From the sequence record OR352947.1: a DNA stretch of 64,000 nt; one strand, written 5' to 3'. The stretch is from Escherichia phage AV117. Made by a program: the position numbers and the translations under genes. Every line of letters begins with the position of its first letter. The stretch's first letter is position 1. Of the stretch, positions 6,309 through 59,082 are shown piece by piece. The notes below the pieces were generated by a model that was not told where the DNA came from, did not search any database, and worked only from the letters and a program-made list of their open reading frames with translations.

Positions 6309-8522
6309 TTATTTGGCCGCTTCCACGGCCTTCATGAATTTAACGATTTGAGCGACCTGTTCTTTGGAAAGAGTACCACGTCGTCCCATGTATTCCGACA
6401 CAATATGATAATTGGTTTCGAATTCAATAACCATTTTATCATCATTATCGTAAGCATTATCTTTAAGCTTATCGAAAATTTTAGCACACAGTTCTAACTT
6501 CTTATTCAGATCTCTGTTAGTAGCACCTGAGAATCGATTCCATCCCCATCGATTATTTACTGTTGAAAGTTTTGCAAAATCTTTACTGATTTCTTTGTTC
6601 TTAGAGCTAAAATACTTACTAAGGAAGTTAAGCTCTTCATTACGAGTAATATGATTCAAATAAGGCTGTGCTCTACGACTTGGTGATACATACTCATCAT
6701 AATCTACTTTATCGATTAGCATAATATAGTCATTAATTGATTTTTCGAACAAGCATTCTACTTCACCAAGTTTACGAACTTTCTTAGCAATCTGTGGACG
6801 GACTACAGTGAACTCTTTAATACCTGACAAATCAGCAATACGGGTCAAGAAATTGGAGTCATAGTTCAACCAACCTTTATCTGCGTCAAGACATTCAGCA
6901 TTAGAACGATTACGAACTATAGCATAACCTTGGATTTCATCAGCTTCACTCGCCGGAATAAAGAGATCTTCTGATACCCAAACATCGTTTTCATTCTTAA
7001 AGAACCGATGAGCACTTGGGGATTTAGGACGAGGCCCATTAGAACGAGTCTTGACTTCAATCCATGGCTTAACGATTTGTAAAAGCTCTGAAGTCTTGTA
7101 CATGTTAATGTTGTCGCCATCAAAGATAACTTTAAGGCGTTCCAGAAGTTTCATTGCATCTTCGTCTGTAGGGTCAACGAATAGTACGCTTTTACCAAAA
7201 CCGCGTGGAACTTTACCTGTTAATTTAACCTCGTCTTTAGACATTTCAATTGAATTAAGAGCTCGCATTAATGGAACACGTCCCTTAACGTCGTCAATAA
7301 CAATTTCAACATTTTTAATGTTAATGCCAATCAGACTGTTAATTGAAATAGTTGACGATGAGCTACCACTTTCACGAATACGACGAAGACGAGGGTCTTC
7401 AATGATATCGTATACGACGCCTAGATTACACCATTCAGGTCCCATTTTAAAACGTTTGTACAACTCAGAATAAGTTAGTTGTTCTTTAGAATATTTCAGT
7501 GATTCAATATTAGAACCAGCTTTTTCCATGTATTTACGAGCTGTATAGCCAAGAGAATCGATTTCACGGAATACATGACGTGGATATTCACAATCAATCC
7601 ATTTCTTAGAATCTTCAGCAAATAATTTTGCATCGATTTCTGCAACACGTTTATGGATATTTGCTACTGTACGTTTATCAAATGACAATGCTTCACGAGA
7701 CGGGGCTACATCTAGTTCACCCATAGGGAATTTAATATAAGCTGTAGTGCATCGCGTCATCATCCATGTTTGTTCTTTAATAACACTTCCAATTGGATAT
7801 ACAATACCACCATAAACAGCCATGATATTACCACGTTCACCCCATGGAGCTTCCTTGGCCAAATATACATCATCGAATTCCGGGAAGTATTTGATATCTT
7901 TAACACCACGAACTTCTGCAATATCGCCGAGAGGACGCATAACATAAGCAATTTCGGATGCGAACTTTTCAAAATCTTCTGGGTTAACAGGCACAACTAC
8001 TTCAACGCCGGTCCGGTCATCAGGGCCCATCTTATCTACGAAGGTTGGCTTAATTTGTGGGCCTGTGTCATCTTGGTAGATTACGTAACCACGAACTTCA
8101 CCATTGTGATAAGACGTAAGGTTAAACGTATCAGTATATGCTAATGGAGCTTTAGAACCGAGTCCGAATCCACCGATGAAATCGTTACTCGATGTTTTAG
8201 TTGAAGCAAAATATGAGTTATAGATTCCTGGCTCTTCATCATTACCTCGAATGGTGAAATCACTCATACCAGGACCAAAGTCTCGAACTACAAAACGTGG
8301 GTCTAAACGACCTGGAGCCTGAACAATAAACTTATCAGTGCAACCATTAAGAATTTGTCCATCGATACAGTTTGTGATTAATTCACGTACACAAGCCAAT
8401 TCTTTGTTTGTATAAAGGTCATTAGACAAAATCTTATAAACTTTACTATTGCCTTGAATAGTAAATGCTGTGCTCTTACCGCCTGAACCAATAATTGTTT
8501 CTTTAGCCGTTTCAATAATCAT
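6309..8522 (-). CDS. rIIA: rIIA protein
   Basis: 737 aa; N-terminus MIIETAKETIIGSGGKS...LYTNK...RELITN.ID and long blocks (FIGGFGLGSK, GPQIKPTFV, APSREALS) match my recollection of T4 rIIA. Confidence 0.95.
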   Translation of the reverse strand: MIIETAKETIIGSGGKSTAFTIQGNSKVYKILSNDLYTNKELACVRELITNCIDGQILNGCTDKFIVQAPGRLDPRFVVRDFGPGMSDFTIRGNDEEPGIYNSYFASTKTSSNDFIGGFGLGSKAPLAYTDTFNLTSYHNGEVRGYVIYQDDTGPQIKPTFVDKMGPDDRTGVEVVVPVNPEDFEKFASEIAYVMRPLGDIAEVRGVKDIKYFPEFDDVYLAKEAPWGERGNIMAVYGGIVYPIGSVIKEQTWMMTRCTTAYIKFPMGELDVAPSREALSFDKRTVANIHKRVAEIDAKLFAEDSKKWIDCEYPRHVFREIDSLGYTARKYMEKAGSNIESLKYSKEQLTYSELYKRFKMGPEWCNLGVVYDIIEDPRLRRIRESGSSSSTISINSLIGINIKNVEIVIDDVKGRVPLMRALNSIEMSKDEVKLTGKVPRGFGKSVLFVDPTDEDAMKLLERLKVIFDGDNINMYKTSELLQIVKPWIEVKTRSNGPRPKSPSAHRFFKNENDVWVSEDLFIPASEADEIQGYAIVRNRSNAECLDADKGWLNYDSNFLTRIADLSGIKEFTVVRPQIAKKVRKLGEVECLFEKSINDYIMLIDKVDYDEYVSPSRRAQPYLNHITRNEELNFLSKYFSSKNKEISKDFAKLSTVNNRWGWNRFSGATNRDLNKKLELCAKIFDKLKDNAYDNDDKMVIEFETNYHIVSEYMGRRGTLSKEQVAQIVKFMKAVEAAK

Positions 8523-13156: not shown

Positions 13157-13681
13157 TCATTTTAGCAAAATAAAATCAACTTGTTCTGACAATGAACGTC
13201 TAAACATTAATTGACAACTTCCGAGGATGAAATCAGGTGCTTCATAGACCGCGATGTAGTATCCTTTAGCTTTCAAGAGTTCAACATCCACCTGGTCATC
13301 AAACCATGCATAAACCGCGTCAACACTTTCAAATCCAAAATATAACCCTTTAGCCCAATCTTCACTCAATTCAAATGAGTGGTCAATTCTATAGTATCTT
13401 AAGATATTTTGTTCAAGGAGTTTGTCTTCATTTACTGTAGGACGATTAGGGACATTATAGTTGTCGCCGTGATGGTAGAAGTTACCTGAGAGTATTCCAT
13501 GCTTATCAAGGAACTCCCATGTTTCTTCAGAGTTGTCGGTGCCCGACCAACCGTATGGCGAACGAGGTTCTTTATTCCAAGAGGTTTCCCAAATTCTGAC
13601 GGCTTTACCATCTTCGATAGCAATTCCTGGTAATGATTCACGTTGAGTACAAAAACTACGTTCTACGCGGTAAACTAACAT
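13157..13681 (-). CDS. hypothetical protein (174 aa)
   Basis: ORF with upstream promoter. Confidence 0.5.
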   Translation of the reverse strand: MLVYRVERSFCTQRESLPGIAIEDGKAVRIWETSWNKEPRSPYGWSGTDNSEETWEFLDKHGILSGNFYHHGDNYNVPNRPTVNEDKLLEQNILRYYRIDHSFELSEDWAKGLYFGFESVDAVYAWFDDQVDVELLKAKGYYIAVYEAPDFILGSCQLMFRRSLSEQVDFILLK

Positions 13682-13699
13682 ATTATTCTCCTCTGGTTG

Positions 13700-13736
13700 A
13701 TATGGTTATAATATCAAAACCAGAGGAGAAGTAAAC
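13700..13736 (-). promoter_or_regulatory. early promoter with -10 element in the loop of the 9-bp inverted repeat CCTCTGGTT/AACCAGAGG
   Basis: GTTTAC-N17-TATTAT on the minus strand; the inverted repeat also contains the GAGGAG RBS. Confidence 0.55.
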
Positions 13737-13740
13737 AACT

Positions 13741-14160
13741 TTATGCAAAAGATGCTGGACAATATTTTTTGATTTGGAACTCAGGAACTACCATGAACTG
13801 TCCAGCGAAAACGATGTTATAAAGCTTAACACCATCTTCTACCCATTGGTCCGAAATAAAACCAGCAACTTGATTCGTTGTCCATGGAGACCCGTCAGTT
13901 GCAGAAGCAATAGTAAATTCATGGTCTTTTACAACTAAAACAGACCTGCACAGTTTCCATTTGAACGCACGTTCTTCTGGTTCAATGAATTGGCTTTTAA
14001 CATAACCAATGTTACCATCGGCGTCACGAACTTTAACTTCGTTACGTCCAAAAACCGGATCACTCACGTAAAGAACTTCAACCAACTTCCCGGCAACTTT
14101 AGAGCGAGAAGCAACAGATACATATACGTAATCACCTGTAGAGAGATTTACAATATTCAT
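13741..14160 (-). CDS. hypothetical protein, paralog family member A
   Basis: shares ASRSKVAGKLVEV and C-terminal DQWVEDG.KLYNIVF.G.F.VV with the next two ORFs. Confidence 0.55.
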   Translation of the reverse strand: MNIVNLSTGDYVYVSVASRSKVAGKLVEVLYVSDPVFGRNEVKVRDADGNIGYVKSQFIEPEERAFKWKLCRSVLVVKDHEFTIASATDGSPWTTNQVAGFISDQWVEDGVKLYNIVFAGQFMVVPEFQIKKYCPASFA

Positions 14161-14169
14161 AATAATTCC

Positions 14170-14688
14170 TTAAGCTTTAAGAGGAGACACATAGCGAGTG
14201 ATTTCAGATTCTTTAACAACTCGGAAGTCACCTAAGAATACGATATTGTATAGCTTTTCACCATCTTCAACCCATTGGTCGCTAATGAAGCCACACATGA
14301 TATCAGTTGTGCTTGGATAACCGTATTCGTCGATGTAATCAAATTCTTTATCGGTTATAAATTCAACGCCTTTGCAAAGAGCCCATTTGAACTGTACATT
14401 AGGTTCAGTAGAAGCAAAATGAGCGCTCACACGAGTTTCCAGGAATTTAGGACTTACGTAAGCGTACTGAGTATCCTGACGTCCAAAACTAGGAATGATT
14501 CGAACTTTAACTTCTTTAATGCGTCCCATGCCATTTGTGCGAAGTCCGACAACTTCAACCAGACGACCTGCGGCTTTAGACCGGGATGCAGTTGATACAC
14601 GCTTAATTTCACCAATAGTAATCATAATTTCTCTCTCTTTGTTTAAATTGAATTCACTATACTCCATCCATCCTTGGATGTACAACAT
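14170..14688 (-). CDS. hypothetical protein, paralog family member B (start probably internal MITIGEIK)
   Basis: ASRSKAAGRLVEV and DQWVEDGEKLYNIVFLGDF motifs; the track start overlaps the promoter. Confidence 0.55.
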   Translation of the reverse strand: MLYIQGWMEYSEFNLNKEREIMITIGEIKRVSTASRSKAAGRLVEVVGLRTNGMGRIKEVKVRIIPSFGRQDTQYAYVSPKFLETRVSAHFASTEPNVQFKWALCKGVEFITDKEFDYIDEYGYPSTTDIMCGFISDQWVEDGEKLYNIVFLGDFRVVKESEITRYVSPLKA

Positions 14689-15224
14689 TAATTAAGGATA
14701 TTAACTACTGCACTACGTGGAACCACACTAAAATCACCGGCATGAACAACGTTCAGAAGTTCAACACCGTCTTCAATCCATTGGTCAGTTACCCATCCAT
14801 TTACTGGACCATCGAATGGGCGTCGAATTGAAACATATTTACACAATAAATCAGTAGGCTCAATAGGCTTAATCAGAGTACCGTACATACAAACGATATC
14901 CATATCAAAGTGGAGACCATCTTTAACAGGTGCTTCTTCAATCAAGAGTTCAAAGTCGGTGCTTGGAAGGGCGGTAGTAGAAATTGTACCGTATAAATTT
15001 TTAATTTCTAAGAATAACCAAGGGCCTTCAACTTGTTTAATGAAGTTAACAATAGTGAAACTATTACCTTGAGTGGCGCCTAAAATTTCACAAAACTTTT
15101 CGTAAGCTCGCACTGAAGCACCGTACCAATTGATTTGTTTTTCGTCTTTCAGGATGTAAGTAGCCGTAGTATTGATATTCATAATGTTTTCCCGTTTGGT
15201 TAAGATAGAAAGATTATACTCCAA
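14688..15224 (-). CDS. hypothetical protein, paralog family member C (start probably internal)
   Basis: C-terminal TDQWIEDGVELLNVVHAGDFSVV; more diverged N-terminus. Confidence 0.5.
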   Translation of the reverse strand: MEYNLSILTKRENIMNINTTATYILKDEKQINWYGASVRAYEKFCEILGATQGNSFTIVNFIKQVEGPWLFLEIKNLYGTISTTALPSTDFELLIEEAPVKDGLHFDMDIVCMYGTLIKPIEPTDLLCKYVSIRRPFDGPVNGWVTDQWIEDGVELLNVVHAGDFSVVPRSAVVNILN

Positions 15225-15242
15225 CCGTCCTTGGTTGTAAAC
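15205..15242 (-). promoter_or_regulatory. early promoter; repeat family TATACTCCAACCxTCCTTGGTTGTAAAC
   Basis: GTTTAC-N18-TATAAT; near-identical copy at 57055-57094 and a third variant at 58045-58086. Confidence 0.5.
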
Positions 15243-15246
15243 TGTT

Positions 15247-15939
15247 TTATCGCTGTTTTACACTTAACGGGTCAGGATTCTCAGGGACATCTTCAAGGCC
15301 AAGCGCATAACGCTGAGCATATTTTAACATCAAAATATCTTTAGCACAATCATGAATACTATCATGGGCAACGAATCCTTTTAGCGTACCCATCGGTAAT
15401 GGACACATACTTAATCCTCGTGTCAACGAGTAAGCTTCGATTGCCGTACGAATATCGCGTTGAGCCCAGAATTTAACCGGTTCTAATTTATCAGTATCAA
15501 TATCCGGTTCAAGAACACCTTCATCACGATAGAGGTCACGAATCAAATCGACCAAGATCGGGAAGTCAAAGCTCATACCACGGCACCACATCTGTGATTT
15601 CCATTGGTCAACTTTATTAGCTCGGCAATAGTCTAAAAAGATTTTAATGCCTTCAAGCGTAGTGACATCGTCTTCAGACGGAGCCAAGTTTTTACGTGCT
15701 TCAGCCGATTGTTCTTTCCACCATTTCATAGTGGATTTAGCAAAAACTCGCTTCCCTTTCTGAGAAGCCAAATTAAATTTAATTCGCTTACCTCGTTGAA
15801 CAAGTTCTTCAAATGATTCAACAACTTCAGGGTCGGAATTATATGCAATAACCGCAAGGTCAATAACAGCCGCTTTTGATGTATTGCCGAATGTTTCAAA
15901 ATCTATAATAACATCAGTGCTCATAATTTTCTCTCTCAA
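15247..15939 (-). CDS. dexA: exonuclease A (DexA, DnaQ-like 3'-5' exonuclease)
   Basis: 230 aa; N-terminal VIIDFETFG exo I motif; map position upstream of dda as in T4. Confidence 0.8.
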   Translation of the reverse strand: MREKIMSTDVIIDFETFGNTSKAAVIDLAVIAYNSDPEVVESFEELVQRGKRIKFNLASQKGKRVFAKSTMKWWKEQSAEARKNLAPSEDDVTTLEGIKIFLDYCRANKVDQWKSQMWCRGMSFDFPILVDLIRDLYRDEGVLEPDIDTDKLEPVKFWAQRDIRTAIEAYSLTRGLSMCPLPMGTLKGFVAHDSIHDCAKDILMLKYAQRYALGLEDVPENPDPLSVKQR

Positions 15940-17249
15940 ATAAAATGGACGTCAAACCGACCACGAGTTGTGCCGACATACAATAACTGTTTAGCTAATT
16001 CTGAATCGGCATAATGGATACACGGTGTATAAACAAAGGCCGTGTCAACAGACATACCCTGGGCCTTATGGAAGGTTGATACTGGTAGTGCCTTCACCTT
16101 AGTGAACATACGTTTAGCATCCCAGAATTCGCTCCATGGAGCTTTACCACCTTTATTCCAAAATTTGTATGTTTCTGCGGTCTTAGCCAAAAACAAATTG
16201 AATTTATAAAGCTCTTCTTCAGAAGAAATAACCTTTATATCTTCGCGGATGTATTCTTCATCATCCCCATATGTTTCTACTGTAAGATTCCAGTATCGTA
16301 TCATATATTCGCCTGAAACACCACGTGCTTTAACGAATGTAGACGTTTCTACAGCATCTCGAATACGAACGAATTGGCCGTTATTGAAAAGCATTTCGGT
16401 CATATTTTTACCATCTAGCTTATATGTCTTAGTAAATGGCTCCTGTAGAACAATGACTTCGTCTTTAATAAATGGTTTTTCTGTTTCAAGAAGTTTTCGG
16501 CGAATAATTGAATTTAGCTTGTCCACCGACTTATTTGTGAATGCCATCATTCGATTTTCGAAAAGGTCTTCAGGAGTTTTAACGACGTTAAAATAGTTCA
16601 TCATATACGATTTAAGGTCTGTATATCCATGAACACCGTGCCCATCAACTACTTTATCGTAAATCCATTTGCCGTTACGAATATCAGTCGCAACATCAAT
16701 AATTGGTGCATTGCTACGTTTAACTTCCGTAAGGTTGCATTGCACGAAGTCTTTGTGAGTGAAGAAAGGACTTAGATACGCAGTTGATTCGCCTGGGTCT
16801 ACCGGACGAATCTGGCATCGGTCGCCGATGCCAATTACTGTACACCATTTAGGGATACTAGCTAACATTATTTTAAACAGAGAACGGTCGCACATTGACG
16901 CTTCATCAAATAACAGTACACGGCACAAGGCTAAGTCGGGGACCTTTTTCTGTTCAAACAATACGTTTTCTTCGTATGTAGTTGGGTTGATTTTAAGAAT
17001 GCTATGAATAGTCGATGCTTCTTGACCTGCAAGTTTGCTTAGAACCTTTTTAGCGGCATGTGTAGGGGCTGCTAAAATAATACCTGATTCTCCAGAAGAA
17101 ATAAGGGCTTCAACGATGAATCTAGTAAGGGTTGTTTTACCTGTACCAGCAGGCCCATTAATAGTTACATGATGTTTCTTTTCTTTAATAGCGTTCATAA
17201 CAACGTTGAAGGCGTTTTTCTGGCCTTCAGTCAAATCATCAAATGTCAT
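15936..17249 (-). CDS. dda: Dda DNA helicase (SF1)
   Basis: 437 aa; Walker A GPAGTGKTT, SF1 motifs; length and N-terminus MTFDDLTEGQKNAF as recalled for T4 Dda. Confidence 0.92.
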   Translation of the reverse strand: MTFDDLTEGQKNAFNVVMNAIKEKKHHVTINGPAGTGKTTLTRFIVEALISSGESGIILAAPTHAAKKVLSKLAGQEASTIHSILKINPTTYEENVLFEQKKVPDLALCRVLLFDEASMCDRSLFKIMLASIPKWCTVIGIGDRCQIRPVDPGESTAYLSPFFTHKDFVQCNLTEVKRSNAPIIDVATDIRNGKWIYDKVVDGHGVHGYTDLKSYMMNYFNVVKTPEDLFENRMMAFTNKSVDKLNSIIRRKLLETEKPFIKDEVIVLQEPFTKTYKLDGKNMTEMLFNNGQFVRIRDAVETSTFVKARGVSGEYMIRYWNLTVETYGDDEEYIREDIKVISSEEELYKFNLFLAKTAETYKFWNKGGKAPWSEFWDAKRMFTKVKALPVSTFHKAQGMSVDTAFVYTPCIHYADSELAKQLLYVGTTRGRFDVHFI

Positions 17250-55787: not shown

Positions 55788-56092
55788 TATAATGTTCTCT
55801 CAAATTTGTGGAAGCATTTACGGCATTTCAATTTCAAGTTATCAGTGGTCCAGTTAACCAGTTGGACTTGGATAGTTCCACATTCCGGGCACGGATGTTT
55901 TGCTGCCGTTTTGGCAGCATTTTCACGTCGTTCAACCATTTTCATTATTTCGTTCCATGCCGGAGGAACGAACTCTCCTTCACCGTGGATTTTATCTCGC
56001 TGAACAAATTCAATCTTTGAACTATCGTCAATAAACTTAACCAAGCCGTGATTAGTGCTCATATCAATATCCTCTAAAAGACGTAGTTTCAT
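55787..56092 (-). CDS. hypothetical zinc-ribbon protein (101 aa)
   Basis: CPECG...CRKC. Confidence 0.5.
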   Translation of the reverse strand: MKLRLLEDIDMSTNHGLVKFIDDSSKIEFVQRDKIHGEGEFVPPAWNEIMKMVERRENAAKTAAKHPCPECGTIQVQLVNWTTDNLKLKCRKCFHKFERTL

Positions 56093-57036
56093 TATAAAAC
56101 CTCAATGGCATTTCGTAAACCATCAGCTTTTGCATTCAGAGCTTTTAATGATTTAGTTTGTTCTGCAATCTGGGCTTCGACTTCTTTCAGGCGAGATTTG
56201 AGATATTCGCGTTCTTCTCTTAAGTTATCAACTTTTTCTGCTTTAGGCTCTTTAATAGGCTTATACTCGTTAGGGTTCTTCAACTTAATTTGAATGCGAG
56301 AACTGTATAACATTGAACCATTATCTTCGGTTTCATCATACATTTCTACCACGTCCATGATTCTTAACATCATGCGAAGTTTATAAGACAGCGAACGAAT
56401 GGTTTTGTTGTGCTTATTAATTTCTTCGGCTTTCATGGTACCGAGATTACGTGAGTAGTAATAAGGAACCTGGATATCAATTGATAATGATGCGGTACCA
56501 TTACCTGTTGGTTTGAACACTGCAGTAACCCAATCTTTAGCATGAACTGTATTTGTACGATCATCGCCACCTGTGAATAATTTACGTGAATGTTTAAAAA
56601 GCATATTCACTTGGTTATTGAATTCACAAGCAAATTTATCAGCAAATTTAGTTTCAGGAATGGTAGTTAACCAATCAGCCAAATGAGTCTTTTTAACATC
56701 ATTAACAATAGTGAATTCAACCAAATCGGTTTTAGATGTCACAGATTTAATAAAGCTCGGCTTCATAAAGTTTTTAATGTTATCGCGAGCTACAGTAGAA
56801 GATAATAAACGAGAACGTTTGAACCATTGAAGCAGTGTCCCTAATGAATGAGAATACGCATTCTGAGTATCTTTACAGATATGATTTTCTTGGCCTGTGT
56901 ATGTACCAAAATCGCGAAGAATACCACTTACTACATCTCGGTGTGGAACATCAAATCCTAGTGCACCAGTAGCGCGCTGAGCATGAACGTTAGCGATAAG
57001 ACCTGCAAAATAATCAATGTAATGTGAACGTGTCAT
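56092..57036 (-). CDS. hypothetical protein with C-terminal coiled coil (314 aa)
   Basis: C-terminal heptad-like LREEREYLKSRLKEVEAQIAEQTKSLKALNAKADGLRNAIEVL. Confidence 0.5.
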   Translation of the reverse strand: MTRSHYIDYFAGLIANVHAQRATGALGFDVPHRDVVSGILRDFGTYTGQENHICKDTQNAYSHSLGTLLQWFKRSRLLSSTVARDNIKNFMKPSFIKSVTSKTDLVEFTIVNDVKKTHLADWLTTIPETKFADKFACEFNNQVNMLFKHSRKLFTGGDDRTNTVHAKDWVTAVFKPTGNGTASLSIDIQVPYYYSRNLGTMKAEEINKHNKTIRSLSYKLRMMLRIMDVVEMYDETEDNGSMLYSSRIQIKLKNPNEYKPIKEPKAEKVDNLREEREYLKSRLKEVEAQIAEQTKSLKALNAKADGLRNAIEVL

Positions 57037-57054
57037 AATATTTTCCTCTCGTTA

Positions 57055-57094
57055 AGATAGAAAGATTATACTCCAACCATCCTTGGTTGTAAAC
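57055..57094 (-). promoter_or_regulatory. early promoter, near-identical duplicate of the 15205-15242 element
   Basis: gttaagatagaaagattatactccaaccatccttggttgtaaactg. Confidence 0.5.
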
Positions 57095-57098
57095 TGAT

Positions 57099-58031
57099 TT
57101 ATGATTTTAATGCATTCATTGCGTTAAAAAGTTTAGAGTACTGCAACTGGAGCTTGGTAACTACTTGTTGAGCATCACGAAGCTTAGCTTGTGCTTTGTC
57201 AAGTTCAACAGACAGTTGGTCCGCAGTGGCTTTGATTTGATTATAATAGTAATCTTCGGCAGGAAGAAGACCGTTAGAGATTTCCAGTTTAGTCGACGGT
57301 GTGCCATTAAACATAACAGGTTGTGCTGAAGCCGCATTAATCTTACCGATAGTCGGGGCGACAATAATTGACGCTTCGAACGTTGCATTTTCCTTTTTAA
57401 GATTTTTATAATATTCAGAGTCTTTGTGCCACCATGGCGCAGGAACCTTTTTACCAATAGATACACGAGCCTGGATAGCGATATGGCCCTTATTCTTGAT
57501 AACGTCGATAATATTAAGCTCACGAGAATAAATTGCTTTAATCTGGTAAATATTATCACCTAACACTTCCAACGCTTGGTGGAATACACGAGCAACGTTA
57601 TCATTCTTAGGTTTATACGTAAGAGTGAACTCGTTCTCACTGATAACCATGATTTCTAACTTATCGTAAGTATATTTCAAATGTTTCATGTTAATTGCTT
57701 GAGGACGAATACGAGAAGCAATGGCCATCAGATTGTTAAGGTTATTTCTGAACTGTTTAGCAAAATATTGTCCTTCACCGCCAATACAAAAATTACGAAG
57801 TTTCTGTTTGGCTAATAAACGACTGAACTCGCCATTTTTAATGAACTCTTTAACTGGTGTGTTAGTAACGCATTCAAATTGAGTAAACTTACGAGAAGTA
57901 ATCCCATAATATGAACAGATTTCCTCAATCTCTTCAGGAGTCTTTACAGGCATACGGATAGGATTAGGTCCTGGGGTATATGCGTTCGAGGTAAATTCTT
58001 TGATAAGTTCTCTACGTGTAATAAAAGCCAT
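57099..58031 (-). CDS. hypothetical protein with C-terminal coiled coil (310 aa)
   Basis: C-terminal ADQLSVELDKAQAKLRDAQQVVTKLQLQYSKLFNAMNALKS. Confidence 0.5.
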   Translation of the reverse strand: MAFITRRELIKEFTSNAYTPGPNPIRMPVKTPEEIEEICSYYGITSRKFTQFECVTNTPVKEFIKNGEFSRLLAKQKLRNFCIGGEGQYFAKQFRNNLNNLMAIASRIRPQAINMKHLKYTYDKLEIMVISENEFTLTYKPKNDNVARVFHQALEVLGDNIYQIKAIYSRELNIIDVIKNKGHIAIQARVSIGKKVPAPWWHKDSEYYKNLKKENATFEASIIVAPTIGKINAASAQPVMFNGTPSTKLEISNGLLPAEDYYYNQIKATADQLSVELDKAQAKLRDAQQVVTKLQLQYSKLFNAMNALKS

Positions 58032-58044
58032 TTTATATTCCTCA

Positions 58045-58086
58045 TGTTGAAAAATTTATTATACTCCAACCATCCCTGGTTGTACA
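58045..58086 (-). promoter_or_regulatory. early promoter, third member of the TATACTCCAACC repeat family
   Basis: TGTACA-N17-TATAAT then GAGGAA RBS. Confidence 0.5.
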
Positions 58087-59082
58087 TCATTCCTTAAGAA
58101 GTTTTACTACTTGAATAAGATTAGCTCGTTCCGTTTTATTTTTACCATTTAAGCCTGCTAATCGTGAGATTTCATCATCAGTCTGTTGAATAGTTACATT
58201 AAGTTCGTTAATCAAAGCTTCAAAGTATTTGATTTGCTCAGCATGTTTTGATTCAAATTTCTGAACCGGAATAACGTCTTGGTTCAGTTCATCAATAAGG
58301 TCTTTAAGAGCATCTTCTTGGTTGATATCATATTCAACTTCTTTTATTTCTTCAACGAGCTCGTCTTTATATCTAACGTCTTTTAGTCCTGGTGCTGGTC
58401 CTGAAATCTCTTCTTTAAGAGTACAAACATATCCAATACGGTATCCAATGCCGTCTCGCTTGATATCAACTTCGTCAATAAATCCACAATGTTTAAGACC
58501 AGAGCCGATTAGGTCAAAATATCCTTGACGTCGTCCTTCAAACGTTACACGAACTACTAAGACAGTTTTACCTGCAACCTTTTGAAGCTCACATTTATAA
58601 AAGTTTGTTGAACCTGAATACCGTGGATGAGTTTTAAAGTTCATCTGACGATCTAGGCCCATTTGTAAGCGTGCTGATACGGCCATAAAACGTGTTTGGT
58701 TCTCGTTAAGATGAGCAACAATCCATTTCAAAGGCATTTTACACTGTTCACGACCGAACAAATCAGTACGTCCTAGATTACGCAGAATGTTGTTAGAGTT
58801 AATCATCGACAGAACGTTAAGTTTATTCAGCGCGCTGAAGATTCCATCAGCCATTGATTTTCCGTAACCTTTACACGCTTTAATAAGCGCTCGCGGTAGA
58901 TTAGTATAAATTTCAGACGGCATATGAAAATCAAATTTACTAGTCAGTAATTGATGAACTTGGATAGCAATTTGCTCATAATTAAGTGCTCTGCGATCAT
59001 TATGGTCTTTAAACCACACTTTAATCTGTGAAGCACATAAACCGTTAATTTCATGTTTTACCGCATCAGATGTAATGCTCAT
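58087..59082 (-). CDS. hypothetical protein with C-terminal coiled coil (331 aa)
   Basis: C-terminal heptad-like region after residue 240. Confidence 0.5.
   Translation of the reverse strand: MSITSDAVKHEINGLCASQIKVWFKDHNDRRALNYEQIAIQVHQLLTSKFDFHMPSEIYTNLPRALIKACKGYGKSMADGIFSALNKLNVLSMINSNNILRNLGRTDLFGREQCKMPLKWIVAHLNENQTRFMAVSARLQMGLDRQMNFKTHPRYSGSTNFYKCELQKVAGKTVLVVRVTFEGRRQGYFDLIGSGLKHCGFIDEVDIKRDGIGYRIGYVCTLKEEISGPAPGLKDVRYKDELVEEIKEVEYDINQEDALKDLIDELNQDVIPVQKFESKHAEQIKYFEALINELNVTIQQTDDEISRLAGLNGKNKTERANLIQVVKLLKE

Follow-up and report, generated by a model that had tools for sequence, protein, structure and literature searches.

The question raised by this locus is what is encoded by three consecutive minus-strand genes in Escherichia phage AV117, and why their products resemble one another. 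The genes lie within a window of 64,000 nucleotides (record OR352947.1; the window is the whole stretch of DNA that was analysed). A sequence-only reading had described them as a tandem triplication, with products of 139, about 152 and about 164 aa, and the present analysis finds ORFs of 139, 151 and 164 aa, referred to here as A, B and C. Taken together with the functional reading of B given below, there is roughly an 80% probability that this locus represents the motB.1-motB-motB' cluster of a T-even phage of Mosigvirus type, specifying members of the phage-restricted MotB family. The earlier observation is confirmed in part, and the interpretation placed upon it is likewise partly supported. 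The genes concerned are:

15936-17249, minus strand, dda
15247-15924, minus strand, dexA
14688-15182, minus strand, gene C (motB.1), 164 aa
14170-14625, minus strand, gene B (motB), 151 aa
13741-14160, minus strand, gene A (second motB), 139 aa
13157-13681, minus strand, motB.2, 174 aa, ortholog of T4 MotB.2

On the minus strand the genes run dda, dexA, C, B, A, motB.2, cef and goF, so that the cluster sits between dexA and cef, in an early region that is non-essential, and in an arrangement of the Tevenvirinae type. The 1.9-kb cluster region has matches in 428 phage records, the closest being Escherichia phages AV112 and AV113 (98.5%) and after them JS09, SSE1 and ST0 (~96%), all of them RB69-like Mosigvirus, and by these matches the phage of the window is of an RB69/JS09-like (Mosigvirus) T-even type. 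The RB69 record of 2003 (GenBank AY303349) lists motB.1, ORF012c, motB, RB69ORF010c ('similar to motB') and motB.2, in that order, and JS09 has a matching gene order with matching names, the counterpart of gene C being labelled motB.1. A duplication origin of motB genes has been proposed, with RB69 carrying two motB genes and one motB.1 (Patterson-West et al. 2021, PMC7827196). Since the 2003 annotation and the 2021 study already give both family and arrangement, the cluster is not new; it is real but ordinary, and re-identifying a published family in its published arrangement has little discovery value in itself.

Two alternative starts were considered and rejected. The cluster had been taken to end at 15224, but the TTG at that position, which would give C 178 aa, lies inside the -10 element of the promoter-like site of C and outside the family profile, and the start is the ATG at 15182. 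An ATG at 14688, which would give B 172 aa, is upstream of the predicted transcription start and also outside the family profile. The neighbouring motB.2, called a 'transcriptional regulator' in some records, was rejected as a fourth member: it belongs to phrog_1106, has no Pfam motB match, and shows no BLAST similarity to the family.

All three products score above the gathering cut-off (25 bits) of the Pfam family PF17613 ('motB', modifier of transcription), with 78.1 bits for A (E 8.8e-22), 130.5 for B (E 6.8e-38, profile positions 2-160 of 162) and 34.6 for C, where the match is confined to residues 88-159. Similarly, A and B match phrog_1671 ('MotB-like transcriptional regulator') with E values of 3.1e-51 and 1.9e-63, while the main match of C is phrog_2333 (E 1e-80), with a secondary phrog_1671 match (E 8e-15) in its C-terminal part only. 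Direct comparison gives the same division. For A and B the homology runs from end to end (44.8% identity over 145 aa, E 4e-29, Smith-Waterman z = 47 against shuffles), whereas C aligns with them at the C-terminus only, at 62% identity over 29 aa with A (E 2e-7, z = 15.7) and 44% over 36 aa with B (E 2e-6, z = 16.2). The block common to all three is G[FW][IV][ST]DQW[VI]EDG.[KE]L[YL]N[IV]V..G.F.VV, and the conserved core, DQW[VI]EDG..L.N[IV]V..G.[FY].V[VI], sits in a domain of ~55-75 aa. An N-terminal block, ASRSK(V/A)AG(K/R)LVEV, had also been ascribed to all three; it occurs in A and B, but the alignment of the three proteins revealed no counterpart in C. A and B are whole-gene paralogs, to which C is joined by a C-terminal domain of ~55 aa only, so that paralogy holds at the level of the domain, and a simple triplication does not, the N-terminal domain of C being unrelated.

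Published work on the family describes a KOW-like N-terminal domain and a conserved C-terminal domain in MotB, with the same C-terminal domain standing behind other N-terminal domains in MotB.1 and two further categories (Patterson-West et al. 2021, PMC7827196). The two-domain MotB architecture (KOW-like barrel with SRSK.AG.LVEV plus the C-terminal domain) is present in A and B and absent from C, which has the C-terminal domain alone and therefore falls in the MotB.1 subgroup, not MotB proper. A search of 1.84 billion proteins with a profile of the shared C-terminal domain, made from A, B and C, retrieved 26 clusters (50% identity), all of them short MotB/MotB.1-type proteins and the majority with a KOW-like N-terminal domain; no relatives outside T4-like phages were found by this search. 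The MotB family appears, from these searches, to be narrow and limited to T4-like phages, and across it the C-terminal domain is fused to several differing N-terminal domains.

The domains of the three proteins lie at:

14928-15182, minus strand, C N-terminal domain (residues 1-85), predicted alpha+beta fold with one helix and five strands
14865-14909, minus strand, C linker motif FDMDIVCMYGTLIKP (residues 92-106), in a disordered linker
14691-14864, minus strand, C C-terminal domain (residues 107-164), the shared barrel
14428-14625, minus strand, B N-terminal domain (residues 1-66), basic and KOW-like, net charge +8
14173-14391, minus strand, B C-terminal domain (residues 79-151), net charge -6, preceded by a linker
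13969-14160, minus strand, A N-terminal domain, in a two-barrel architecture as in B
13744-13968, minus strand, A C-terminal domain, the shared barrel

Gene B specifies a protein with 47% identity to T4 MotB over 161 aa (E 1e-40) and 93% to RB69 MotB, and is the ortholog of T4 MotB. The C protein has 36.6% identity to T4 MotB.1 over 134 aa (E 6e-23), which identifies it as the T4 MotB.1 ortholog. Gene A specifies a further MotB paralog, also of full length, and corresponds to RB69ORF010c. Aligned with B, it has lost the basic hairpin and most of the linker, and has kept all of the family-invariant residues. A-type copies occur in ~207 of the 777 phage records having any MotB, in Mosigvirus and some Tequatrovirus (e.g., RB68), and their products share 83-99% identity, with nothing between 60 and 80%.

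Comparison of motB.1 sequences also brought to light a discrepancy among reference records. In the T4 reference (NC_000866 / AF158101), the DQWIEDG codons of motB.1 contain one G too many (ATTGGAAGATGG vs ATTGAAGATGG in the two sequence versions), which cuts the product to 119 aa and leaves the remaining 29 codons intact in another frame. Thirteen other records, of T4, RB55 and RB59, do not have the extra G and specify an uninterrupted 143-aa protein, the sequence of which is present on 256 contigs. The frameshift was not mentioned in the literature examined on it. Published T4 MotB.1 work refers to the 119-aa (13.8 kDa) reference form (PMC12152347), in which the last 24 residues of the C-terminal domain are missing; if constructs followed the reference annotation, experiments with '13.8 kDa MotB.1' may have used an incomplete conserved domain. 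Frame errors in the RB69 record break motB.1 into a 132-aa ORF and the 29-aa ORF012c, whereas in the window it is one intact ORF of 164 aa. ORF012c, a 'Category 3' peptide, is on this comparison the out-of-frame tail of motB.1 and not a separate gene.

Structure prediction, which the sequence-only reading had proposed as a check, was carried out for A and C, and the AF2 models show a common C-terminal barrel. The model of A, built with family alignments (pLDDT 84.8), has two five-stranded barrels (residues 11-61 and 73-133), and in that of C (pLDDT 79.5) a disordered stretch (87-103, pLDDT <50) separates an N-terminal domain of alpha+beta type (8-83) from a C-terminal barrel (116-163). The conserved motif forms strands 2-4 of the predicted five-stranded C-terminal barrel. 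A PDB sequence search with both family profiles found nothing, and a Foldseek search with the C model matched T4 P39415. Because A and C share the C-terminal domain alone, we attribute to it the Tudor-like fold matches obtained with both models, the match lists themselves giving no aligned ranges. The resemblance to Tudor, PWWP, chromo and KOW small beta-barrels (SH3-like) is one of fold to a predicted barrel, at 9-22% identity, and not one of family membership. An HHpred assignment has placed the MotB C-terminal domain in the cold-shock/OB DNA-binding fold (PMC7827196). The structure matches of the models do not support this, nor a likeness of the domain to eIF5A C-terminal domains, as no OB or cold-shock entries are among the best 60 of either list, and the shared domain is predicted to be Tudor-like rather than OB-like.

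Each gene had been credited with an early promoter of its own. Sigma-70-type consensus matches, here called promoter-like sites, are found at C and B only, and none was found directly upstream of A. They are listed below, together with the features at the boundary of the cluster:

about 15213-15242, minus strand, promoter-like site 5' of C (GTTTACA, 17-nt spacer, TATAAT; 11/12), predicted start ~15206
14656-14684, minus strand, promoter-like site 5' of B (TGTACA, 17-nt spacer, TATAGT; 9/12, weaker), predicted start ~14649
13708-13735, minus strand, promoter-like site 5' of motB.2 (TTTACT, 16-nt spacer, TGnTATTAT), predicted start ~13701
13686-13730, minus strand, 18-bp-class hairpin at the cluster boundary, with the motB.2 promoter-like site embedded in it

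The ATG of A lies 9 nt past the stop codon of B, across the intergenic sequence TAAGGAATTATTATG, which carries the Shine-Dalgarno sequence AAGGA, and on this basis we take A to be the second cistron on the transcript of B. The region has no more promoter matches than shuffling would predict, but a 25-mer repeated four-fold does exceed that expectation. The B and C sites have the spacer CCAAGGAnGGnTGGAG in common, and the 25-mer TACAnCCAAGGAnGGnTGGAGTATA, comprising promoter spacer and -10, has four copies in the 64-kb window, where none are expected: upstream of B, of C, and of two unrelated ORFs at 57036 and 58031. The C site and the copy at 57067 share a longer promoter-plus-leader repeat of ~46 nt (~57045-57097). 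The exact 25-mer is kept upstream of motB in RB69 and JS09, and RB69 also has a copy 5' of motB.1. The ORFs behind the other two copies (three large ORFs, 56092-59082) show no mutual paralogy by BLASTP.

A repeated early-promoter element of 25-46 nt before variable-region genes is reminiscent of the PeSL cassettes of T4-type phages, and repeats of this kind have been proposed as substrates for modular shuffling (Arbiol et al. 2010; Comeau et al. 2014). PeSLs consist of a terminator stem-loop followed by a promoter, whereas here there is a short inverted repeat (CAACCA/TGGTTG) inside the promoter spacer. No terminator was detected upstream of the promoter repeat, and the RNA upstream of it folds no better than shuffled sequence (z 0.19 and -0.68); lacking an upstream terminator or structure, it was not accepted as a PeSL. 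The hairpin upstream of motB.2, by comparison with shuffles, is stable (dG -23.9 kcal/mol, z -5.7), with the -10 in its loop and the motB.2 Shine-Dalgarno sequence GAGGAG paired in its 3' arm. A hairpin that sequesters the Shine-Dalgarno sequence and includes a promoter is a classic feature of T4, where it keeps read-through transcripts translationally silent.

What is known of function comes from T4. T4 MotB belongs to the early proteins; its over-expression is toxic, and it binds DNA, whether modified or unmodified, without sequence specificity (PMC6070864). It also co-purifies with both H-NS and StpA, and raises burst size two-fold (Patterson-West et al. 2018, PMC6070864). On proV it dominates or alters the footprint of H-NS, and it relieves the repression of part of the H-NS regulon (PMC7827196). 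The T4 MotB.1 N-terminal domain has been described as LSm-like and grouped with those of GoF and Frd.2 (Kim et al. 2025, PMC12152347), and a T4 delta-motB.1 mutant is without phenotype (PMC12152347). The genes had been assigned to an early host-takeover region; the early location holds, given the dexA-cef setting, and host takeover is borne out as far as T4 MotB interferes with H-NS (PMC6070864, PMC7827196). The charges of the four proteins differ considerably:

T4 MotB: pI 9.23, net +6, N-terminal domain +5, C-terminal domain +1
B: pI 7.71, net +1, N-terminal domain +8, C-terminal domain -6
A: pI 5.82, net -1, N-terminal domain -1, C-terminal domain 0
C: pI 4.58, net -9, N-terminal domain -4, C-terminal domain -4

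By its orthology to T4 MotB, B most likely has a MotB-like role, namely early, non-specific DNA binding that disturbs H-NS. Charge makes such a role plausible for B and doubtful for A and C, both of which would be poor candidates for the bulk coating of DNA proposed for B. The basic charge of MotB proper resides in the KOW-like N-terminal domain and is absent from the shared domain, which points to the N-terminal domain of B as the DNA-binding element. Conversely, the C-terminal domain common to A, B and C is either neutral or acidic in each of them, and so is more likely a protein-binding or oligomerisation module than a DNA binder. Having lost net positive charge, A probably has a narrower or different role than B, and would be a specialised partner or variant of it and not a second DNA coater.

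In the mechanism proposed here, C and B would each be transcribed from a sigma-70-type early-promoter-like site, with A as the second cistron of B, and B would be made immediately after infection. As the ortholog of T4 MotB, B would bind double-stranded DNA non-specifically, chiefly via its strongly basic N-terminal barrel, and would coat or compact DNA and displace or remodel H-NS/StpA, leading to a modest gain in burst size. The differing N-terminal domains would confer differing activities, and the shared barrel would serve as a common protein-binding or assembly module. B is far less basic overall (pI 7.7) than T4 MotB (9.2), so that even DNA coating by B is extrapolated. The published cold-shock/OB assignment (PMC7827196) runs against this account and would favour DNA binding by the shared domain. 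The charge gradient (9.2, 7.7, 5.8, 4.6) and the Tudor-like fold argue that the shared domain is not the DNA binder, which changes the experiments that would be sensible for MotB.1 and the second MotB.

A more speculative extension, tentatively put forward and on balance improbable, is that the C-terminal barrel is a Tudor-like adaptor that brings three N-terminal heads to one partner, which could be the H-NS/StpA filament, RNA polymerase, or the proteins themselves. The heads would be the basic KOW barrel of B, the charge-neutral KOW barrel of A and the LSm-like domain of C. As part of the same proposal, A, made from the mRNA of B, might tune B as a partner or competitor that does not itself coat DNA, and the disordered motif D.D[VI]..[MA]Y..[PL], recurrent in MotB.1-type proteins, might be a second docking peptide.

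Three other explanations need to be weighed against the MotB reading. That the similarity of the three proteins is due to chance or low complexity can be given next to no credence. It could draw on the short span of the A-C and B-C matches (29-36 residues by BLASTP), but the alignment named earlier as the check on this point gave Smith-Waterman z values of 16-47 against shuffles, the Pfam and PHROG profile matches are above threshold, and the explanation was rejected on these grounds. In addition, the motif is diverse in composition (D, Q, W, E, G, L, N, V, F), falls on core strands of a confidently predicted barrel, and as part of the C-terminal profile retrieves only MotB/MotB.1-type proteins from the 1.84 billion searched. 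It is also very improbable, if less so, that A is a redundant copy of motB in the course of decay towards a pseudogene. It is the shortest copy, and is without the basic hairpin, most of the linker, net positive charge and a promoter of its own; against this, its ORF is intact with a good Shine-Dalgarno sequence and retains every family-invariant residue. This interpretation was rejected on the dN/dS of A (0.08-0.23), its 83-99% conservation across ~207 records of two genera, and the confident two-domain AF2 model.

The sequence-only reading had favoured diversified paralogs evolving against the host. Put more fully, this would be an arms race of three fast-diversifying proteins, each tuned to a different host target or defence, with copy number and sequence varying by host-specific selection, and we consider it unlikely, though by a smaller measure than gene decay. 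The genes do lie in an early 'hyperplastic' region that is dispensable, no more than about a quarter of MotB-bearing records (~207/777) have copy A, the C-terminal domain stands behind several N-terminal domains across the family, and H-NS silencing is itself a defence against foreign DNA. There are also signs of mobility. Compared with Tequatrovirus RB68, amino acid identity is 91% for A, 85% for B and 76% for C, against 69% for dexA and 43% for motB.2. As the cassette is more RB68-like than the genes beside it, it would have moved between genera, and these values suggest lateral exchange, which also counts in favour of an arms race. Selection tells otherwise. In comparisons of the window with JS09, RB69, RB68 or T4, dN/dS is 0.08-0.23 for A, 0.17-0.26 for B and 0.06-0.29 for C, i.e. 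0.06-0.29 for all three genes in every comparison, with 0.02-0.09 for dda and dexA. This indicates purifying, and not gene-wide diversifying, selection on the three genes, somewhat looser than that on dda and dexA. The A-type proteins form one tight group with a gap at 60-80%, and this, together with the low dN/dS, points to a conserved function and not arms-race diversification. Neither is the duplication recent: the identity of A to B (45%) is not above that of B to T4 MotB (47%), so that the A/B split appears, from these values, to be at least as old as that between the MotB proteins of Mosigvirus and Tequatrovirus. No PADLOC-type or published anti-defence link for the family was found in the literature searched, and in laboratory strains a T4 motB mutant has only a 2-fold effect on burst size and a motB.1 mutant no phenotype.

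The MotB reading can finally be set beside the systems already described. B shares with T4 MotB 47% full-length identity, the same KOW-like and C-terminal domains, the same place downstream of dexA/motB.1 and an early-type promoter, but its linker is shorter by 11 aa and it is far less basic (pI 7.7 vs 9.2). A shares the architecture of T4 MotB, with 38.5% identity, but is 23 aa shorter, slightly acidic, and without the basic hairpin or its own promoter; the T4 genome, unlike that of this phage, has a single motB. C is the ortholog of MotB.1 of the proposed GoF/Frd.2/MotB.1 LSm-like group, with one helix and five strands predicted in its N-terminal domain, and differs from T4 MotB.1 in a 21-aa linker insertion with the motif FDMDIVCMYGTLIKP, which T4 MotB.1 lacks. 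The closest parallels are the clusters of RB69, JS09 and RB68, which have the same gene order, the same lengths (151 and 139 aa) and the same 9-nt B-A junction, with 88-93% amino acid identity for A and B in the case of RB69.

The order of genes in the dexA-motB region is not constant across genera. In T4 and RB68 it is dexA, motB.2, motB.1 and motB, compared with dexA, motB.1, motB, the second MotB paralog motB' and then motB.2 in RB69 and in the window (13157-15182). Identity between RB68 and the window is 76–91% for the motB.1/motB/motB' cassette versus 69% for the flanking dexA and 43% for motB.2, a disparity that points to lateral exchange of the cassette. A metagenomic protein of 43 aa, P0242, joins residues 1-15 of MotB.2 to the C-terminal 28 residues of MotB.1 and looks like a deletion variant in some T4-type phage from which most of motB.2 and motB.1 has been removed.

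Features in and around the cassette, and at distal sites (window coordinates)
13686-13735, minus strand: hairpin before motB.2 (-23.9 kcal/mol, z -5.7)
14770-14790: counterpart of the extra-G site in T4 motB.1 (record NC_000866.4, ~7299-7314; extracted locus ~1800-1815)
14865-14909: short motif FDMDIVCMYGTLIKP, residues 92-106 of the MotB.1 ortholog, in its disordered linker (pLDDT <50)
14658-14682, 15215-15239, 57067-57091 and 58060-58084, minus strand: copies of the promoter-like 25-mer
56092-59082, minus strand: a row of three ORFs, encoding 314, 310 and 331 aa

The hairpin holds the Shine-Dalgarno sequence of motB.2 in its 3' arm and the -10 element of that gene's own predicted promoter in its loop. 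In transcripts reading through from motB and motB', the ribosome-binding site of motB.2 would be masked by the hairpin, and in promoter-proximal transcripts it would be left unmasked.

The 25-mer TACAnCCAAGGAnGGnTGGAGTATA is of the early-promoter type, contains the inverted repeat CAACCA/TGGTTG, and occurs four times in the window, with none expected. Two of the copies (15193-15245 and 57045-57097) have about 46 nt in common, including the 5' leader. This repeat may be a substrate for shuffling, similar to the mobile PeSL cassettes of T4-type phages, but in those a terminator precedes the promoter, while none was found upstream of the 25-mer in the window. Copies also precede two of the three distal ORFs, the middle one of which matches Pfam DUF7235 (E 1e-109); BLASTP found no mutual similarity among the three.

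The linker motif has the consensus D.D[VI]..[MA]Y..[PL]. Many proteins whose C-terminal domain is of the MotB.1 type contain it as well, either N-terminally or in the linker, and in one case it is duplicated. T4 MotB.1 and MotB proper lack it. The motif could serve as a docking peptide.

T4 MotB.1 is annotated as 119 aa (13.8 kDa) because the reference carries a single extra G within the conserved DQWIEDG codons (ATTGGAAGATGG versus ATTGAAGAyGG); in 13 other records of T4, RB55 and RB59 the reading frame is uninterrupted and gives a protein of 143 aa. Any published MotB.1 constructs that were built according to the T4 reference annotation may be missing part of this domain. RB69ORF012c (29 aa), the MotB-like peptide that Patterson-West 2021 (PMC7827196) call 'Category 3', is the C-terminus of RB69 motB.1 (AY303349, extracted locus 1801-2297), out of frame because of two extra bases in that record. 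The window has motB.1 as a single, intact ORF of 164 aa.
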